Sequence record: OV696614
From: Escherichia phage Cyrano
Direction: 5' to 3' (one strand)
Length of the DNA: 64,000 bases
A program made the position numbers and the translations under genes. Under the pieces are notes generated by a model that did not search any database, was not told the DNA's origin, and saw nothing but the letters and a program-made list of their open reading frames with translations. This document shows positions 58,747 to 64,000 of the stretch, piece by piece; the stretch's first letter is position 1; every line of letters starts with the position of its first letter.

Positions 58747-59049
58747 ATGAATCCACCAGATCCGACCACCGAGGAGACAGACTGGCAGCGATTCATCCGT
58801 ATGTACGCTCAGGAAATAGGTCCAACGCCAACGGCAGAGCAGGCAATGCTGCTGAAATACTTCAAAGAGGCGGGAGAGGATTTACCAATTGATGACTCAG
58901 CATATTGGTTCCACTGCGCATGGCGTAAGTATGACGTGATATTCACACAAGGCATGGGAAGCAAAGATATGGTTGTGTGGCATCTACTCCATATAGACAC
59001 AGCCGTTGACAGAGTTATTGAACAGTTTTTCCCTAAACAAGAAGATTGA
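58747..59049 (+). CDS. hypothetical protein
   Basis: 100 aa; reading frame is open further upstream without a canonical start. Confidence 0.35.
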   Translation: MNPPDPTTEETDWQRFIRMYAQEIGPTPTAEQAMLLKYFKEAGEDLPIDDSAYWFHCAWRKYDVIFTQGMGSKDMVVWHLLHIDTAVDRVIEQFFPKQED

Positions 59050-59104
59050 TCGCCTATTCATAACTAACAAAATAAGTAAACACTAACCACAAAAGGAAAA
59101 ACAC

Positions 59105-59380
59105 ATGAGAGTTTTAGTTCGAATCGTTACCAGCACTGTCTATGACGTGTTTCCGGTTTTTATGGTCAAAGCCGATGGCCTTAACGACGAAGAAACTGAC
59201 GCGCTGATCCAGCGTATTCTCGTTGAATATACAGGTCATGACGCTGATTCAGTGATGGTTGATGATGATGGTGTTTGTTGGCATAACGGCAACTGTTGGT
59301 ACGTAGAAGAGACTCAACAAATCAGTGATGAAGATGCCGAACATCTTGAGCGTATTTTAAGCATCAGCACTTTTGAGTGA
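59105..59380 (+). CDS. small acidic hypothetical protein
   Basis: 91 aa, Asp/Glu-rich; conserved leader AAAAGGAAAAACACATG. Confidence 0.35.
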   Translation: MRVLVRIVTSTVYDVFPVFMVKADGLNDEETDALIQRILVEYTGHDADSVMVDDDGVCWHNGNCWYVEETQQISDEDAEHLERILSISTFE

Positions 59381-59595
59381 GTTTACAGTAAAATTTATAT
59401 AAGTTAGTATCTACCTATCATGAAGATTTTTATTGAATACTTGTTACTCATCGTTTCAATAGCTTTTGTCATCGACTGCATTTTCACTGGTGTCATTCGT
59501 AAAGTCTTTTCCCCGGTGCACGACGTAGTCATAAACGCTTTGGCTATCGTGCTCGTATTTAATTCAGCATTTGATGTAATCAAAGAGGTGGCAGC

Positions 59596-59931
59596 ATGAA
59601 GGCCATCCCATTCGCGCTGTTGTTCCTTTCTTCGATCGTTGTGGCCGACACCACTGTTTATCAGTGTGAAATGTCTGTAGCCGACGTTAAGAATGGCGCT
59701 CTTACCGACGTCATAAAAGCACCATATGGAGCGATGGTCGTAGACAGCGGCGACCAGTTCTATGTTGTGCGTGACGATCGAGTGTTGTCATCCCCATATC
59801 TCACAAATCGTAATGGCAAATTAACCGGCGTCGGAGAAGACCACTTCGTATACAACAAATACAAGGGCTTCTATGGCGTTCACGCTTCTCAGCAAAGCTA
59901 CCTTTTCGATGACTGCAAGGAGGTTGGATAA
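59596..59931 (+). CDS. small secreted protein (signal peptide)
   Basis: 111 aa, N-terminal signal peptide MKAIPFALLFLSSIVVA. Confidence 0.4.
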   Translation: MKAIPFALLFLSSIVVADTTVYQCEMSVADVKNGALTDVIKAPYGAMVVDSGDQFYVVRDDRVLSSPYLTNRNGKLTGVGEDHFVYNKYKGFYGVHASQQSYLFDDCKEVG

Positions 59932-60143
59932 TGGCATTAACACTGGCAGGTCTGGAAATCGAGAAAACAAGCGGCTACTGGCGTGCCAAGGGTTTCAAGC
60001 AACCTGGCATTCTTGAGCGTCTGGAACGTGAAGATGGGTATATCGTCCACCAGCGGCGTGAATGGCGTATGTACAATCCAGAAACAGGAAAACTGACTAC
60101 AAAAGCCGGAACACTTTGGGGTCTGTTGAAGAAAATACACTAA
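59931..60143 (+). CDS. hypothetical small protein
   Basis: 70 aa, start overlaps previous stop. Confidence 0.3.
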   Translation: MALTLAGLEIEKTSGYWRAKGFKQPGILERLEREDGYIVHQRREWRMYNPETGKLTTKAGTLWGLLKKIH

Positions 60144-60152
60144 TAGCACCAA

Positions 60153-60631
60153 CCACTGCGGTGAGTAGTCTGCTCACCGCATTCGTATCCAGCTCATTAT
60201 CCACTGTAGTCAGTAACAAAACCTTCCTACATATCTGCTAACCACTGTAGCGAGTAGACAGCCTTTCATTCGCATCAAACAACCACTATGGTGAGTATTG
60301 GAGTGAGATGTCCAGCGGGTATCCACTATGGTGAGTAAGCCTTTGCTGTTTTCAGTGGATATCCACTCGCCACAGTGGATACGCTCAAAGATGAGGGCGA
60401 CAACAACCACTATAGACAGTAAATTTTCCAAGATACCCAGTGACCACTAACCTCGCAGCCCTTGTTTCATCAGTGTTAGTGATCACTAACATTTAATTCA
60501 GTATTTGCATTCTACTGCCTACAGTGGTTATCAACAGATAACGATACTCACTATAGTGGATAGCGAATTACAGATATAAGTAAGGCTCACTACAGTGGAT
60601 AGTGAGCCTTACTACTAACTACAGTGGTTGG
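60153..60631. repeat. iteron array downstream of repA (P1 incA-like)
   Basis: at least 6 copies of CCACT(G/A)T(A/G)G..AGTA at ~40 bp spacing (60153, 60201, 60242, 60283, 60323, 60407) plus inverted ACAGTGG copies at 60519-60631. Confidence 0.7.
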
Positions 60632-60632
60632 G

Positions 60633-61688
60633 CTATTTGCGAGTCTTTGCCTTGCGCAACTCTTCGAGAAGCGCCAGTTCTTCTTTACTCAACATGACCA
60701 TTTTGCCTTCTTTTTCGTCAGGCACAACGTCGATAATGTCATCTTGATTCTCATCTGGGAGGCTATATTCCGTCTCATCATTATCGATTTTTGTTGATAT
60801 TTGTGCCTGGCGTAACTTTGGCCGCCTATAGTGGATGACGAAGTAGACCGAGTTTCCGCGCTTAACTTCCGTGTAATCGAGATATCCTATCTCTCGCAGC
60901 TGTTCCATAGCCTTTCTTACCGTCGCATTCTGAGTAATAGTGCGACTTGTCAGATTAAGTCTGGCGCGTAAACGGGCTAGTGATATTGGTGCCGGATCAG
61001 GCGGCAAACTTTCAATAAAAGTATAAAGCGCCTGAGCGGATTCTTTTCTTGAGAGTTCGTTTATAGCCCGGAGTTGCAGAAGAACCTTTTTGTCGAACTG
61101 GTAGAGTTCGAAAATCTTGGGATCTGCTTTCAGTTCGACCGTATCGTGCTTGACACTATATTTTGCCGTTTGCACAAGATGCGTTACGTAAAACTCATCA
61201 GAGCCTTTGCTACGGAACGAGATGGTATTTGTGGCAATACGGCTTAGCGAACTGTCCAGGCGTTTGCGTAACTTCGCTGATGACCTGGCGGTCGGAATGC
61301 CACACAGCCTTACAAACTCAACGAACGGCAACGTGACAGTATCGCCAACGACCTTGTGTTTGGCAAACGCGTGGATTATTCCCACCCACGTTTTAAAGTC
61401 GTTATCCATATCAAGCCGAAGGCCAGAGATCCTTATGTCTTCGTACCCTTCGGCTTTTGCCAGAGACAGCTGTTTGAGTTCAGCAGAGGCATCCATAGAG
61501 ACCATTTGCCCCTTTCTTCCTCTGGATGTCGATTTCAGCGTCGGAACGAAGAGGCCCAGACGCATCAAAGCAACAGGCTGAACAGTGTTATTAGTGTTAG
61601 GAACCAACGTAACAACTTCGCCTGTCTTTTTATCTGTTTCTGAAAATGCTTCAACGATCGCTATGTTTTTATTGCCGTTTTCGCTCAT
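60633..61688 (-). CDS. repA: replication initiator RepA (P1 / RepFIB family)
   Basis: 351 aa; strong resemblance to P1 RepA as I recall it ([60 protein letters not shown]); flanked by iterons. Confidence 0.9.
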
Positions 61689-61734
61689 TCCAAATGTCTC
61701 TTGTTATTCGACGGCTTTGGTGGCCTTTGCTGAT

Positions 61735-61852
61735 TACAGTGGATAGTAGCACTCATCACAGCGGTTATCCTACCGTCTATAGTGGTTTTTCTCCTCTCTA
61801 TAGTGGTTGCTTTGCTCCCTATAGTGGATTATTCGCTCTCTATAGTGGATAT
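61735..61852. repeat. iteron array upstream of repA (origin iterons)
   Basis: six copies of C(T/C)CTATAGTGG(A/T)T-type repeats at ~21 bp spacing. Confidence 0.7.
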
Positions 61853-61895
61853 CGATCATGTCTGAAGGCAGATGGCACAACGGTTTGAGGTGGGC

Positions 61896-62113
61896 GGGGA
61901 TCTTATTGGGTCTTTATGGGTCTCTTTGGTTCTCTTTGTGATCTGAATTACTGGATCGGGCCTGTGGATAAAAATCAGAGGATTTCAAGAACAGGTAACT
62001 CTACTCTTCTGTGGATATTTAAGGACATAAGAATCATGACTAAGAGTAGAGTTTAAAATATATCTATGTATATCAGTATGTTAATGAAGAATTAAGTCAT
62101 TAAGTTATCCATA
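61896..62113. promoter_or_regulatory. origin-like region: GATC-containing 10-11 bp repeats, DnaA boxes and AT-rich stretch
   Basis: TGTGGATAA (61963-61971, perfect DnaA box), TGTGGATAT (62010-62018), TTATCCATA (62105-62113); AT-rich 62040-62105; GGGTCT/GATCT repeats 61896-61957. Confidence 0.5.
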
Positions 62114-62132
62114 AAAGACAATGTGCTCTACT

Positions 62133-62233
62133 CTCTACAGTGGATATATACAGCTCTCCAGAGTGGTTGTTTTACTCTTCATAGCGGTTATTCAGCTCTC
62201 TACAGAGGTTTCTTTGCTCTCCATAGTGGATGG
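62133..62233. repeat. second iteron array (five copies, ~21 bp spacing)
   Basis: CTCTACAGTGGATAT, CCAGAGTGGTTG, CATAGCGGTTA, CTACAGAGGTT, CCATAGTGGATGG. Confidence 0.65.
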
Positions 62234-62272
62234 CAACACCCTTTCAGACCAGTAACCGCAACGGCTAGAGGC

Positions 62273-62330
62273 GATCGGGGATCTCTTTGGATCTTCTATT
62301 TGATCTTACTTGGGATCTCTTATTTGGATC
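62273..62330. repeat. GATC cluster (six GATC in 58 bp) in ~14 bp repeats
   Basis: GCGATCGGGGATCTCTTTGGATCTTCTATTTGATCTTACTTGGGATCTCTTATTTGGATC. Confidence 0.55.
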
Positions 62331-62431
62331 TATCCAGTGGATAACTGGGATAAGTAAAACAGGCAAATGCAGATTAAGGTATGCCTAATGAGTTATCGTA
62401 GCATCGGCCAATAACTACTGAAAAAACGATT

Positions 62432-63076
62432 ATGGATCTAAAACGCACGCGCTGGGTTCGTCGTCTTGAGGACGGCTCCTACACTATCGAATCAAATTCC
62501 AACCTGAATAAGCAGAAGTTACTTTGTGATATCTGCGGTATAGCGGCGAAGTGCCCGATCTACGAAACCAGAATTAAACTTGATAAGGCTGGTGTGAACT
62601 TTCATTTGAATAGTTGTATCAGGTACGTTCCATTGCTCGCATTTCGTAAACCGATCATCGGATTGGATGCGCCCTACTTCAACACACTCCGTTCAGGAGT
62701 AACGTGGCGAGATCGTTTAACACCAGACAAACTGATTTGCCTTGTATCCGCAGATACAGGAAAAATCATTCGTTTTGGGAAAGTAGACAAGGTTTACTCA
62801 GGCCCAGTTGACGAGATGTTGCGGAAACACAGCCGGTTTAATCACCTCTGCATGGGTGGTGAGAAAATCGAGAAGGTTGAAGAAGTGATCCGCAAATCCT
62901 ACGGACACTTCCTGACCAAAGATAGCCTGCTCACTGCAATCTACATCAGACATGTAAAACGTGAGTTCGACCTTGAATACCATAGCGAAGAAGAACTGAA
63001 CCTTGTCGATCCACGTCCTAAAGCTGGCGTCATAAGCATAAATGCAGCGCGTAAAAAGCCCACTGACGCGCTGTAA
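62432..63076 (+). CDS. hypothetical protein
   Basis: 214 aa, AT-rich, several Cys; no recognisable motif. Confidence 0.35.
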   Translation: MDLKRTRWVRRLEDGSYTIESNSNLNKQKLLCDICGIAAKCPIYETRIKLDKAGVNFHLNSCIRYVPLLAFRKPIIGLDAPYFNTLRSGVTWRDRLTPDKLICLVSADTGKIIRFGKVDKVYSGPVDEMLRKHSRFNHLCMGGEKIEKVEEVIRKSYGHFLTKDSLLTAIYIRHVKREFDLEYHSEEELNLVDPRPKAGVISINAARKKPTDAL

Positions 63077-63330
63077 CCCTCCAGATCGTATATTGGCGTA
63101 GATAGAATCTACGCCCCCTCAAAATAGCTCTCATAGCGTTCTACAGTGATCCAGTCTTATTTTTAGTCATACAGACAAGCAAAGTTGCGCCACGATAAAT
63201 AGGTATATACTTACTTATAAATTTTGTATATTAAGGCGCTCGTTTCATTCCTAACATACCGTTATGCATAGTTGTTTACCTCCTCATTGCTCTTAGAATT
63301 TGTATCAAAATAACCACAAAGGAAAAACAC

Positions 63331-64000
63331 ATGACTTTGCCATACGGCGTCATTTCTGACTGCCACTACCACAAATGGGATGCGTTCTCCACGACGAACG
63401 CTGAGGGGCTTAACTCCAGACTTGAAATACAGTTGGAAGCAACGAAAGAAGCAGCCATCGCCATGAAGAAGGCCGGTTGTAAGTACATGTTGGTTGCCGG
63501 TGATACATTTCACGTCCGAGGAACTGTGTCCCCTTCTGTTTTGCATTACGTAACTGAAACGTACAAGTGGATTATCAACGAGCTTGATCTGACAGTAGTA
63601 ATGCTGGCCGGTAATCACGATCTTGAAACCAACGATTCAGTATATAGCGCCAACGCAGCAGCATCGCTGAGTTCTATCGGCGTGGTAATCGTATGTGGCA
63701 AGCGCCCACACTCAATAAAAATTGGTGATGTGACTGTCCACCTGATTAGCTGGCGTAACAATCATGCGGAGCTTATCAGCGATCTGAAAGCATTACGTAA
63801 GAGCGTAGAAGGTGATAATCATGACGTTGTTATCCATACATCCATTAACAAAGCCATTCCAACAATGCCTGACGTCGGTATCGATGCGCAGGAGTTAAAG
63901 GATATCGGCTTTCGTCTCGTGCTTAGTGGGCATTACCACAACCACAAAGAGGTCATTCCTGGAGTTATCAGTGTCGGTGCACTGACTCATCAAAATTGGG
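63331..64000 (+). CDS. calcineurin-like metallophosphoesterase, SbcD/Mre11-like nuclease (3' partial, runs off window)
   Basis: found by hand (truncated at window end so absent from ORF track); motifs D.H (ISDCHYH), GD..H (AGDTFH), GNHD (AGNHD), GH.H (SGHYHNH); leader AAAGGAAAAACACATG. Confidence 0.6.
   Translation, partial: MTLPYGVISDCHYHKWDAFSTTNAEGLNSRLEIQLEATKEAAIAMKKAGCKYMLVAGDTFHVRGTVSPSVLHYVTETYKWIINELDLTVVMLAGNHDLETNDSVYSANAAASLSSIGVVIVCGKRPHSIKIGDVTVHLISWRNNHAELISDLKALRKSVEGDNHDVVIHTSINKAIPTMPDVGIDAQELKDIGFRLVLSGHYHNHKEVIPGVISVGALTHQNW

Follow-up and report, generated by a model that had tools for sequence, protein, structure and literature searches.

In the replicon of the P1 plasmid prophage, tandem DnaA boxes, GATC heptamers, a GC-rich spacer and five iterons at 21-bp spacing make up a single origin core abutting repA, and a control array of nine further iterons, incA, lies on the other side of the gene. 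Methylated heptamers are required for origin function in P1. RepFIB replicons (the P307 / pColV-K30 REPI type, represented here by the phage-plasmid SJ46) belong to the same family and have the same layout: a DnaA box, five or six GATC sites, five iterons, repA and a downstream array of mixed orientation. The replicon of Escherichia phage Cyrano described here is of the type carried by the phage-plasmid SSU5, the S. Typhi plasmid pHCM2 and the Y. pestis plasmid pMT1 and, being shared with these, is of an already known type. In 1998 Lindler et al. reportedly found that a pMT1 fragment of roughly 2.45 kb with this replicon type replicated autonomously, and likened it to RepFIB, P1 and P7.

The window analysed is a 64,000-nucleotide stretch of the Cyrano sequence (record OV696614), of which positions 60148-62353 very probably constitute the low-copy replicon of an SSU5-like phage-plasmid, iteron-controlled, of theta type and belonging to the P1 RepA / IncFIB family. 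The elements follow one another in the same order as in P1. Element-by-element comparison with the annotated P1 record thus agrees with the oriR/incC/incA logic attributed to this region in the initial annotation, and the DnaA/GATC part of the core more distant from repA is 75% identical to P1 oriR over 88 nt (E 1e-11, pairwise nucleotide search). The iterons themselves are unrelated (GATGTGTGCTGGAGGGAAA in P1, CTCTCTAYAGTGGWT in Cyrano), so that a different incompatibility specificity is expected. Further differences are that P1 has one origin core with its five upstream iterons whereas Cyrano has two in tandem with 11, and that Cyrano lacks DnaA boxes between the iterons and repA. The duplication of the origin core is the one unusual trait of the replicon; being structural, it leaves the family assignment, which is based on homology, unaffected.

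The RepA initiator

Two features were located in the coding region:

60633-61688, minus strand: repA, encoding a 351-aa initiator of the Rep_3 family (WH1+WH2), predicted to bind iterons
60818-60839, plus strand: iteron-like site in the 3' part of repA (PWM score 15.2-15.6)

The open reading frame is annotated as repA in plasmid CP088831, which is 100% identical here. Its product is, on sequence grounds, a Rep_3 initiator and a homologue of P1 RepA. The Pfam domains Rep3_N (42.2 bits, cut-off 22.4) and Rep3_C (22.6 bits, cut-off 21.1) both exceed their gathering scores, the RepA proteins of P1 and P7 match residues 40-293 with 47.5% identity (tblastn, E 1e-71), and P1 RepA aligns by blastp at 49% over 267 aa. 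Homology points to no other family, as expected if the initiator is of the P1 type originally proposed. Compared with P1 RepA, the Cyrano protein has extensions at the N-terminus (~40 aa) and C-terminus (~58 aa). The RepA proteins of SSU5, pMT1 and pHCM2 are much closer, with pairwise identities of 91-92%. There was no match to RepA in NCBIfam, and sequence searches of solved structures, using either the single sequence or a nine-sequence profile, gave no significant match.

The iteron-like site within the gene is kept at an equal position in SSU5, pMT1, pHCM2 and CP088502, while none was detected with the PWM in repA of the Pantoea plasmid.

Iterons and the two origin cores

Apart from this intragenic site, 23 iterons (RepA-type site length roughly 17-22 bp) flank repA in three arrays. 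Matches to the core AYAGYGGWT number 22 in the 64 kb, and 20 of the 22 fall within 60199-62231. The PWM was trained on the 11 upstream copies only and recovered the 12 downstream copies, outside its training set, with scores of 12.6-26.9; the highest score in the window outside the replicon was 13.6. Upstream of repA, the following elements were identified:

61726-61853, plus strand: proximal iteron array, six copies with spacings of 22/21/21/21/21 bp
61854-61971, minus strand: remainder of the proximal core, with GC-rich spacer, heptamers phased at 10-11 bp and DnaA box
62010-62018, minus strand: DnaA-like box ATATCCACA, one mismatch
62016-62130, no strand: AT-rich inter-core segment, 23-26% GC, containing a one-mismatch DnaA box TTATCCATA at 62105
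62127-62234, plus strand: distal iteron array, five copies with spacings of 23/21/21/21 bp, oriented like the proximal array
62235-62353, minus strand: remainder of the distal core, with GC-rich spacer, six GATC heptamers and tandem DnaA-like boxes
62336-62344 and 62345-62353, minus strand: the tandem DnaA-like boxes of the distal core, TTATCCACT and TTATCCCAG respectively

The two upstream arrays with their spacing of about 21 bp had been recognised at the outset, and both are confirmed. The array beyond the first, initially singled out as a third array in the locus, is indeed present but is no unrelated extra: the origin core has been duplicated in tandem, and this array belongs to one of the two copies. 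The upstream region is made up of two paralogous tandem P1-oriR-like cores, each consisting of a DnaA box, GATCC-type heptamers phased at 10-11 bp, a GC-rich spacer and five or six iterons at 21-bp spacing. Proximal and distal cores are 68% identical over 139 nt, non-iteron spacer included (E 2e-19), and the paralogy reaches past the iterons into spacer, heptamers and DnaA box.

The two cores differ in their complement of GATC sites. In the distal core all six heptamers carry one (62273, 62280, 62290, 62302, 62314 and 62327), and these six sites are invariant in five relatives. Six GATC in 58 bp (62273-62330) is a density unique in the window, where the runner-up count is three per 70 bp, and has a Poisson P of about 8e-7 per 70-bp window. 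Among the proximal heptamers three contain GATC (61899, 61940 and 61954), and GGTCT or GTTCT stands in its place in the other three. Both GATC clusters noted in the initial annotation therefore exist, but the density of the three sites at 61899-61957 is matched in four other places, and the sole point of interest of this cluster is its paralogy to the distal cluster. The six-site cluster had, moreover, been placed between the two upstream arrays, whereas it actually lies outside the distal array.

The DnaA boxes noted at first are present: the sole perfect box, TTATCCACA, lies in the proximal core (61963-61971, minus strand), and boxes with one mismatch lie at 62010, 62105 and 62336. The AT-rich segment also noted earlier was recovered, since the 100 nt with the lowest GC content in the window (23%, against a window mean of 46.6%) begin at 62016. 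The corresponding segment in SSU5, pMT1 and pHCM2 has 40-44% GC and is only 62-66% identical, strong AT-richness being confined to the E. coli lineage to which Cyrano belongs, and the inter-core length across the clade ranges from 129 to 297 bp. With length and composition varying in this way, and AT-richness not conserved in relatives, an essential role for the stretch in unwinding is unlikely, and was rejected.

From its location at the position of P1 incC, the proximal array is presumed to be the operator and promoter region of repA. No convincing conserved repA promoter was located in a scan of the proximal array and the repA leader: the sole match, TCGATA-16-AATAAT (61855-61828, minus strand), is a weak sigma-70-like sequence (9/12) that is not conserved in SSU5.

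Distribution of the duplicated core

Both cores are present in SSU5, pMT1, pHCM2 and CP088502, with a start-to-start offset of the arrays fixed at 295-297 bp. Among the 53 analysable loci of the RepA clade (RepA 62-91% identical), 45 have two arrays; the loci come from many genera of Enterobacterales, among them Yersinia, Kluyvera, Buttiauxella, Rahnella, Erwinia, Pantoea, Cedecea, Franconibacter and Xenorhabdus. The distal array of Cyrano is orthologous to, and collinear with, that of the Pantoea plasmid pPV989-167. A single core was found in 25 of 25 loci of the sister clade, as in P1, SJ46 and the Klebsiella-type and PhiR41_1-type replicons.

Across the 45 dual-core loci the outer flank of the distal array contains 5-6 GATC sites, except for two loci with three, while the count in the proximal flank ranges from 0 to 5. 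Sequence conservation follows the opposite pattern: the proximal DnaA box and heptamers form the best-conserved non-coding segment in comparison with SSU5, pMT1 and pHCM2 (94-95%), as against 76-77% for the distal core.

A single RepA clade, ranging from plasmids of Xenorhabdus and Pantoea to pMT1, pHCM2, SSU5 and E. coli phage-plasmids, has long kept the duplication, and we tentatively raise the idea that this duplication could represent a functional two-part initiation region. Such a region might comprise two origins differing in Dam/SeqA sensitivity or, alternatively, an origin plus an operator for repA, which are one element in P1 and would have been parted after duplication. Full-text literature searches returned no iteron or origin descriptions for pMT1, pHCM2 or SSU5, and no published account of the dual-core layout was found in the literature searched, which did not cover the classical pMT1, pHCM2 and RepFIB papers, where it may be described. 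The conserved dual core is a natural setting in which to ask whether the origin and operator roles that P1 incC combines are separable, a matter mainly of interest to specialists in plasmid replication.

The downstream control array

The region on the other side of repA contains:

60148-60632, no strand: control array of 12 iterons (PWM), the counterpart of P1 incA, adjoining the repA stop codon
60440-60490, plus strand: two GTRAYCACTAAC motifs, within a conserved 109-bp gap of the array

A downstream array with inverted copies had been reported initially, and that much holds; the true count is 12 iterons, six of them inverted, and not about six. Reading outward from repA, four direct iterons (starting at 60611, 60582, 60543 and 60511) are followed by the 109-bp gap, beyond which come one inverted copy (60402), two direct copies (60362 and 60342) and, at the outer end, five inverted copies at about 41-bp spacing (60318, 60278, 60237, 60196 and 60148). 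The spacings of the inverted copies, from 60148 to 60402, are 48/41/41/40/84 bp. As in P1, the array begins at the stop codon of repA and has direct copies and then inverted ones; the six direct and six inverted copies follow the same logic as the three direct and six inverted copies of P1 incA. Unlike its P1 counterpart, the array is not followed by a parAB operon.

Downstream iteron number differs among relatives, Cyrano (12) having a smaller array than the SSU5/pMT1 type (13 in pMT1, 15 in SSU5) and CP088502 having 17. The upstream arrays remain constant over this range of 12-17 copies.

The second GTRAYCACTAAC motif forms a perfect palindrome, GTTAGTGATCACTAAC (60475-60490). The motif pair is also present in SSU5, pMT1 and CP088502, and a pair of this type occurs, as in Cyrano, in the downstream arrays of the PhiR41_1 and Klebsiella replicons, despite the unrelated iterons there; the loci of P1, SJ46 and Pantoea yielded no such motifs. 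A role for the palindrome as a repeated operator was considered and rejected, as it occurs only once in the window. An Rfam scan of 59900-62600 (E <= 1) matched no RNA family, so there was no sign of antisense-RNA control.

Which core is the origin

By analogy with P1 and iteron plasmids, RepA monomers would load on the origin iterons and act with DnaA to unwind the heptamer region and bring in DnaB. Re-initiation would be delayed through methylation of the heptamers by Dam and their binding by SeqA once the fork has passed. RepA bound to the iterons nearest repA would repress its own promoter, and at the downstream array RepA-mediated pairing (handcuffing), along with titration, would keep copy number low.

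Within this scheme the distal core is probably an active origin. It is taken as the Dam-regulated one because its six GATC sites have been kept along with its tandem DnaA boxes, and because its GATC cluster is retained clade-wide. The duplicated cores would then have undergone subfunctionalisation, the proximal one mainly retaining an operator and autoregulatory role beside repA, and perhaps still acting as an origin in a residual or auxiliary way.

The proximal core could instead be the only origin, as in P1, with the distal core a regulatory duplicate that acts as a handcuffing or titration partner, or as a SeqA-binding sink, and so tightens copy-number or cell-cycle control. The high conservation of the proximal DnaA box and heptamers and the presence there of the only perfect DnaA box would fit a working origin, and the position is that of P1 oriR/incC, the P1 origin being the one that abuts repA. 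Yet in the SSU5 group GATC has been lost from half of the proximal heptamers, and some clade members have only 0-2 GATC sites in the proximal flank where the distal flank keeps its 5-6. The clear nucleotide homology to the origins of P1 and of the Klebsiella-type and PhiR41_1-type replicons, furthermore, belongs to the distal core. A sole proximal origin is a possibility we regard as doubtful.

Somewhat in the same vein as the two-part region considered above, both cores might be active origins under one RepA, differing in Dam/SeqA sensitivity through their six and three GATC sites, so that one could still fire when methylation or sequestration was unfavourable. Each core does retain a DnaA box, phased heptamers, spacer and regularly spaced iterons, and the variation in inter-core distance suggests that the two are separate units and not parts of a single phased complex. 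The tandem repeat also persists in many genera, though inter-array recombination could delete a copy; if the proximal array serves as an operator, however, this persistence is explained equally well. We know of no precedent for dual active origins in the P1 / RepFIB family, and consider them unlikely here.

That the repeats are chance occurrences or decaying remnants, the element being kept by another replicon elsewhere, is highly improbable: nothing was found in its favour, though the window covers 64 kb of an element of roughly 107 kb, and against it stand the extreme iteron enrichment, the intact repA, the conservation of the architecture in hundreds of plasmids and the typing of identical plasmids (CP088831) as IncFIB only.

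Relatives and phage-plasmid context

The replicon sequence is 100% identical to that of many E. coli and E. albertii plasmids of ~107 kb typed IncFIB. In PLSDB, with MOB-suite, CP088831 is assigned IncFIB and no other type, and pMT1, pHCM2 and the Klebsiella plasmid are likewise IncFIB. Phage-plasmids of the SSU5 supercommunity are mostly typed IncFIB (PMC7969092).

Genes in the window with PHROG matches include those for terminase, portal, tape measure, tail fibre, DNA polymerase and ligase. The first 24 kb (positions 1-24000) are 80.6% identical to SSU5 over 90% of the query, and 98.3% identical to E. coli phage CMS-2020a. With SSU5-like siphovirus structural and replication genes beside a plasmid replicon, Cyrano is, by these comparisons, a phage-plasmid of the SSU5 supergroup. 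The plasmid-like lysogeny initially suggested fits this context of structural phage genes, SSU5-like left-hand sequence and IncFIB typing.

SSU5, pHCM2 and pMT1 share with Cyrano the iterons, both cores, the 109-bp gap with its motif pair and a neighbouring gene of 214 aa, and differ by a nucleotide identity of about 80-84%. The surrounding phage backbone is nearer to those of the E. coli phages CMS-2020a and PhiR41_1, which have another replicon. The PhiR41_1-type replicon of E. coli and the Klebsiella (pKpn-type) replicon sit at the same place in the genome, flanked by the same phage genes, and their origins are 70% identical over 184 nt and 75% identical over 163 nt, respectively, to the Cyrano distal core. 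They differ in having RepA proteins only 50-53% identical, unrelated iterons (GTATGCTGTCAGCGGT) and a single core. These comparisons show the whole replicon as a 2.1-kb cassette, exchangeable between nearly identical phage backbones, and such exchange would let related phage-plasmids escape mutual incompatibility.

This replicon type maintains the Y. pestis virulence plasmid pMT1 and S. Typhi pHCM2, and also a large, widely distributed set of phage-plasmids from E. coli and Enterobacter, some of them with resistance genes. Annotated correctly, it accounts for plasmid-type lysogeny and allows incompatibility behaviour to be predicted.

The RepFIB replicon of SJ46 is more distant. Its RepA is 44-45% identical to that of Cyrano and its origin is 71% identical to the Cyrano distal core over 132 nt; it differs in having a single core and iterons of the form TTGACTATACGCGAT. 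The IncFIB label assigned by MOB-suite covers both this type and that of Cyrano, although their RepA proteins are only about 44% identical.

Iteron arrays flanking repA

The initial annotation described a repA gene flanked by iteron arrays, and both motif counts and a position weight matrix bear this out. Of 22 matches to the iteron core AYAGYGGWT across the 64-kb window, 20 lie within 60199-62231. A matrix built from the 11 upstream iteron copies alone picked up 12 further iterons downstream of repA, with scores of 12.6-26.9, as well as one inside repA at 60818; beyond the replicon, the window scores 13.6 at most.

Principal features of the replicon (window coordinates)
60148-60632: downstream iteron array, counterpart of P1 incA, 12 copies
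60633-61688, minus strand: repA, encoding a 351-amino-acid product
61726-61853: proximal iteron array, 6 copies at spacings of 22/21/21/21/21 bp
62127-62234: distal iteron array, 5 copies at spacings of 23/21/21/21 bp, oriented like the proximal array
62010, 62105 and 62336: DnaA boxes with one mismatch

The downstream array includes inverted copies, as first annotated, the earlier figure of at least six iterons being replaced by twelve. Outward from the repA stop codon it consists of four direct copies, a 109-bp gap, one inverted copy, two direct copies and five inverted copies at a spacing of around 41 bp. Its iterons number 12 in the window, 13 in pMT1, 15 in SSU5 and 17 in the E. coli plasmid CP088502, whereas SSU5, pMT1, pHCM2 and CP088502 all have both upstream arrays with copy number and spacing unchanged, a difference that fits a control-locus role for the downstream array.

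Among close relatives the inverted part of this array (window 60148-60423) grows and shrinks by 41-bp units, CP088502 having three identical tandem units flanked by near-identical copies (722-1088 of its replicon locus, L006). The conserved 109-bp gap contains a pair of GTRAYCACTAAC motifs (60440-60451 and 60479-60490), the second of them part of a perfect 16-bp palindrome, GTTAGTGATCACTAAC (60475-60490), with GATC at its centre. The pair is kept in SSU5, pMT1 and CP088502 and also, despite their unrelated iterons, in the PhiR41_1 and Klebsiella replicons; the P1, SJ46 and Pantoea plasmid loci yielded no copy of the motif. The pair may be bound by a factor peculiar to SSU5-type elements.

The initiator protein

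The open reading frame at 60633-61688 is named repA in plasmids of 100% identical sequence, and its product matches Pfam Rep3_N and Rep3_C, each above the gathering score. In tblastn searches of phage genomes three tiers of relatives are seen: SSU5 RepA (91% identity), the RepA proteins of P1 and P7 (47.5% over residues 40-293, E 1e-71) and the RepFIB-type proteins of SJ46 and RCS47 (around 44%). At 351 residues the protein is longer than P1 RepA (286). Relative to the latter it has an N-terminal extension of around 40 residues (1-40, window 61569-61688), and its C-terminal tail (residues ~294-351, window 60633-60809), comprising an acidic stretch and then a predicted amphipathic helix, is shared with the Klebsiella-type and PhiR41_1-type proteins and lacking in P1 and SJ46 RepA. 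The sole domain hint here is a weak, sub-threshold Pfam match to T4_y05I_C (E 0.005).

The iteron-like site within the 3' part of repA (CCTATAGTGGATGA, 60818-60839, matrix score ~15) occupies the same position in SSU5, pMT1, pHCM2 and CP088502, with none detected in the Pantoea plasmid. It could reflect either RepA binding or mere codon conservation.

GATC sites, DnaA boxes and the AT-rich segment

Two GATC clusters had been placed between the upstream arrays. Both exist, but the six-site cluster (62273-62330) is situated outside the distal array. Elsewhere in the window the count never exceeds three sites per 70 bp (Poisson P ~8e-7 per 70-bp window); the three at 61899-61957 are unremarkable by themselves. 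The annotated DnaA boxes are also present, although just one, TTATCCACA at 61963-61971 on the minus strand, is perfect. The AT-rich segment proves to be the most extreme of the window, the 100 nucleotides from 62016 having 23% GC compared with a mean of 46.6%. It is nevertheless unlikely to be an essential element, since the matching segment in SSU5, pMT1 and pHCM2 is 40-44% GC and weakly conserved, and the cores lie 129-297 bp apart in members of the RepA clade.

The top sigma-70-like match of the region (TTAACA-16-TATATT, 10/12, 62057-62084, minus strand) falls inside this lineage-specific segment and is directed across the proximal core to repA. Such a match could arise by chance in AT-rich DNA; alternatively, a promoter there could drive transcription across the proximal core. 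Within the proximal array and the repA leader, the one sigma-70-like match is weaker (9/12, 61855-61828, minus strand) and is not shared by SSU5.

Relationship to P1 and other replicons

In the annotated P1 record a tandem pair of DnaA boxes leads into five GATC sites and a GC-rich spacer; five iterons at 21 bp (incC/oriR) come next, then repA and incA, the last having nine iterons (three direct, six inverted) from the repA stop codon on. The same order of elements is seen in the window, supporting the oriR/incC/incA interpretation originally offered. The P1 alignment proposed with it gave 75% identity to the distal core over 88 nucleotides (E 1e-11, pairwise search); on the repA strand TTATCCACTGGATAGATCCAATAATCAGGTCCATACAGATCCC...GATCCCTGATCG in P1 corresponds to TTATCCACTGGATAGATCCAAATAAGAGATCCCAAG...GATCCCCGATCG in the window. 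The distal core similarly matches the origin in a Klebsiella SSU5-like plasmid (75% over 163 nucleotides), in SJ46 RepFIB (71% over 132) and in phage PhiR41_1 (70% over 184). In all four replicon types the iterons are unrelated to those of the window, as expected from different specificities, and each has one origin core compared with the window's two.

By its sequence, the region belongs to the P1 RepA / RepFIB family, all of whose testable architectural features were found bar a single origin core. More narrowly, it is of the SSU5 / pHCM2 / pMT1 replicon type which, being already represented in databases (repA, IncFIB typing), makes this an ordinary and known replicon. A pMT1 fragment of around 2.45 kb was reportedly shown to replicate by Lindler et al. 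in 1998, who are said to have likened it to RepFIB, P1 and P7. If so, the cloning test initially suggested would in essence already exist for a replicon whose RepA is 91% identical.

A duplicated origin core

The initial annotation singled out a third array beyond the origin. That array (62127-62234) is real, yet rather than a separate extra it is half of a tandem duplication of the origin core. The proximal and distal regions are paralogous outside the iterons too: the GC-rich spacer and last heptamers are 68% identical over 139 nucleotides (E 2e-19), and the DnaA box and first heptamer likewise pair between units (repeat families D8 and D13). Both units are complete, with a DnaA box, heptamers phased at 10-11 bp, a spacer and iterons at 21-bp spacing. 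They differ in GATC content, the distal unit having six sites and the proximal unit three heptamers reading GGTCT or GTTCT. Both units are present in SSU5, pMT1, pHCM2 and CP088502, with the arrays 295-297 bp apart start-to-start and the three decayed proximal heptamers identical, and also, collinear with the window, in the non-phage Pantoea plasmid pPV989-167 (RepA 69% identical).

Scanning a single genome from each species yielded 80 loci. Of the 53 analysable loci of the same iteron type (RepA 62-91% identical), 45 have two arrays, both with GATC sites in the outer flank; loci of this type come from genera that include Yersinia, Kluyvera, Buttiauxella, Rahnella, Erwinia, Pantoea, Franconibacter, Cedecea and Xenorhabdus. 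In the sister clade (TTACAGTGAAC-type iterons, nearly all Pantoea) a single array with an adjoining GATC cluster was found in every locus (25/25). Two cores in most analysable loci of the RepA clade, and one in the sister clade and other replicons, mark the duplication as an old, clade-specific and retained trait. It may be the sole under-described aspect of the replicon: no account of it was found in the searchable literature, the original pMT1, pHCM2 and RepFIB papers lying outside that search. It offers a modest, testable twist on otherwise familiar machinery.

Proposed working of the two cores

The mechanism of iteron plasmids in general has been reviewed (PMC6090056). By homology with P1 and other such plasmids, RepA bound to the origin iterons would, with DnaA, open the heptamer region; re-initiation would be limited by the GATC heptamers being methylated by Dam and sequestered by SeqA; RepA bound beside its own gene would repress the repA promoter; and the downstream array would lower copy number through titration and handcuffing.

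As to which core fires, the evidence points in both directions. We lean towards subfunctionalisation, the distal core probably serving as Dam-regulated origin and the proximal mainly as repA operator. Nearly all dual-core loci have 5-6 GATC sites in the distal outer flank, compared with 0 to 5 in the proximal flank, and it is the distal core that has clear homology to the origins of related, single-core replicons. The reverse assignment, with the proximal core as origin and the distal as regulator, is a live alternative: the proximal core holds the only perfect DnaA box, and its box and heptamers are the best-conserved non-coding segment relative to the SSU5 group (94-95% versus 76-77%). Activity of both cores as origins is another live alternative.

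Phage-plasmid context and replicon exchange

Many E. coli and E. albertii plasmids of around 107-126 kb, typed IncFIB and non-mobilizable, match the 2.3-kb region at 100% identity; SSU5, Y. pestis pMT1 and S. Typhi pHCM2 match it at around 81-84%. Elsewhere the window has genes for terminase, portal, tape measure, tail fibre, DNA polymerase and ligase, and its first 24 kb are 80.6% identical to SSU5 over 90% of the query. Elements of this kind form the SSU5 supercommunity of phage-plasmids, most typed IncFIB (PMC7969092; PMC11652158).

The phage backbone (1-24000) is closer still to CMS-2020a (98.3%) and PhiR41_1 (92.7%), whose replicon differs, with RepA 49-50% identical, unrelated iterons and one core. 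Similarity to PhiR41_1 is 98.9% over 58944-60143, nil over 60144-62242 and resumes from 62243, at around 70% across the origin core and 93.4% over the whole block 62243-63778, including the neighbouring gene. On the left, similarity stops abruptly at the first downstream iteron; on the right, the junction fades inside the shared DnaA/GATC core. Such similar flanks around a dissimilar interior suggest that phage backbones have swapped the replicon as a cassette of around 2.1 kb.

Divergent from the origin is a gene for a 214-residue protein (62432-63076, plus strand; PHROG 2105, E 1e-132) with no Pfam or NCBIfam match. Whatever their replicon type, all SSU5-like elements examined (SSU5, pMT1, pHCM2, Klebsiella and PhiR41_1) have this gene immediately beside the DnaA/GATC core; it is absent beside the Pantoea plasmid replicon.

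In PLSDB, counting best partial matches, 178 plasmid records match the whole 2.3-kb region (60100-62400) at at least 95% identity, compared with 62 for the upstream origin region (61690-62431), for which around 250 more fall at 80-90%. The disparity hints at recombination within the replicon, between repA with its downstream array and the origin cores.
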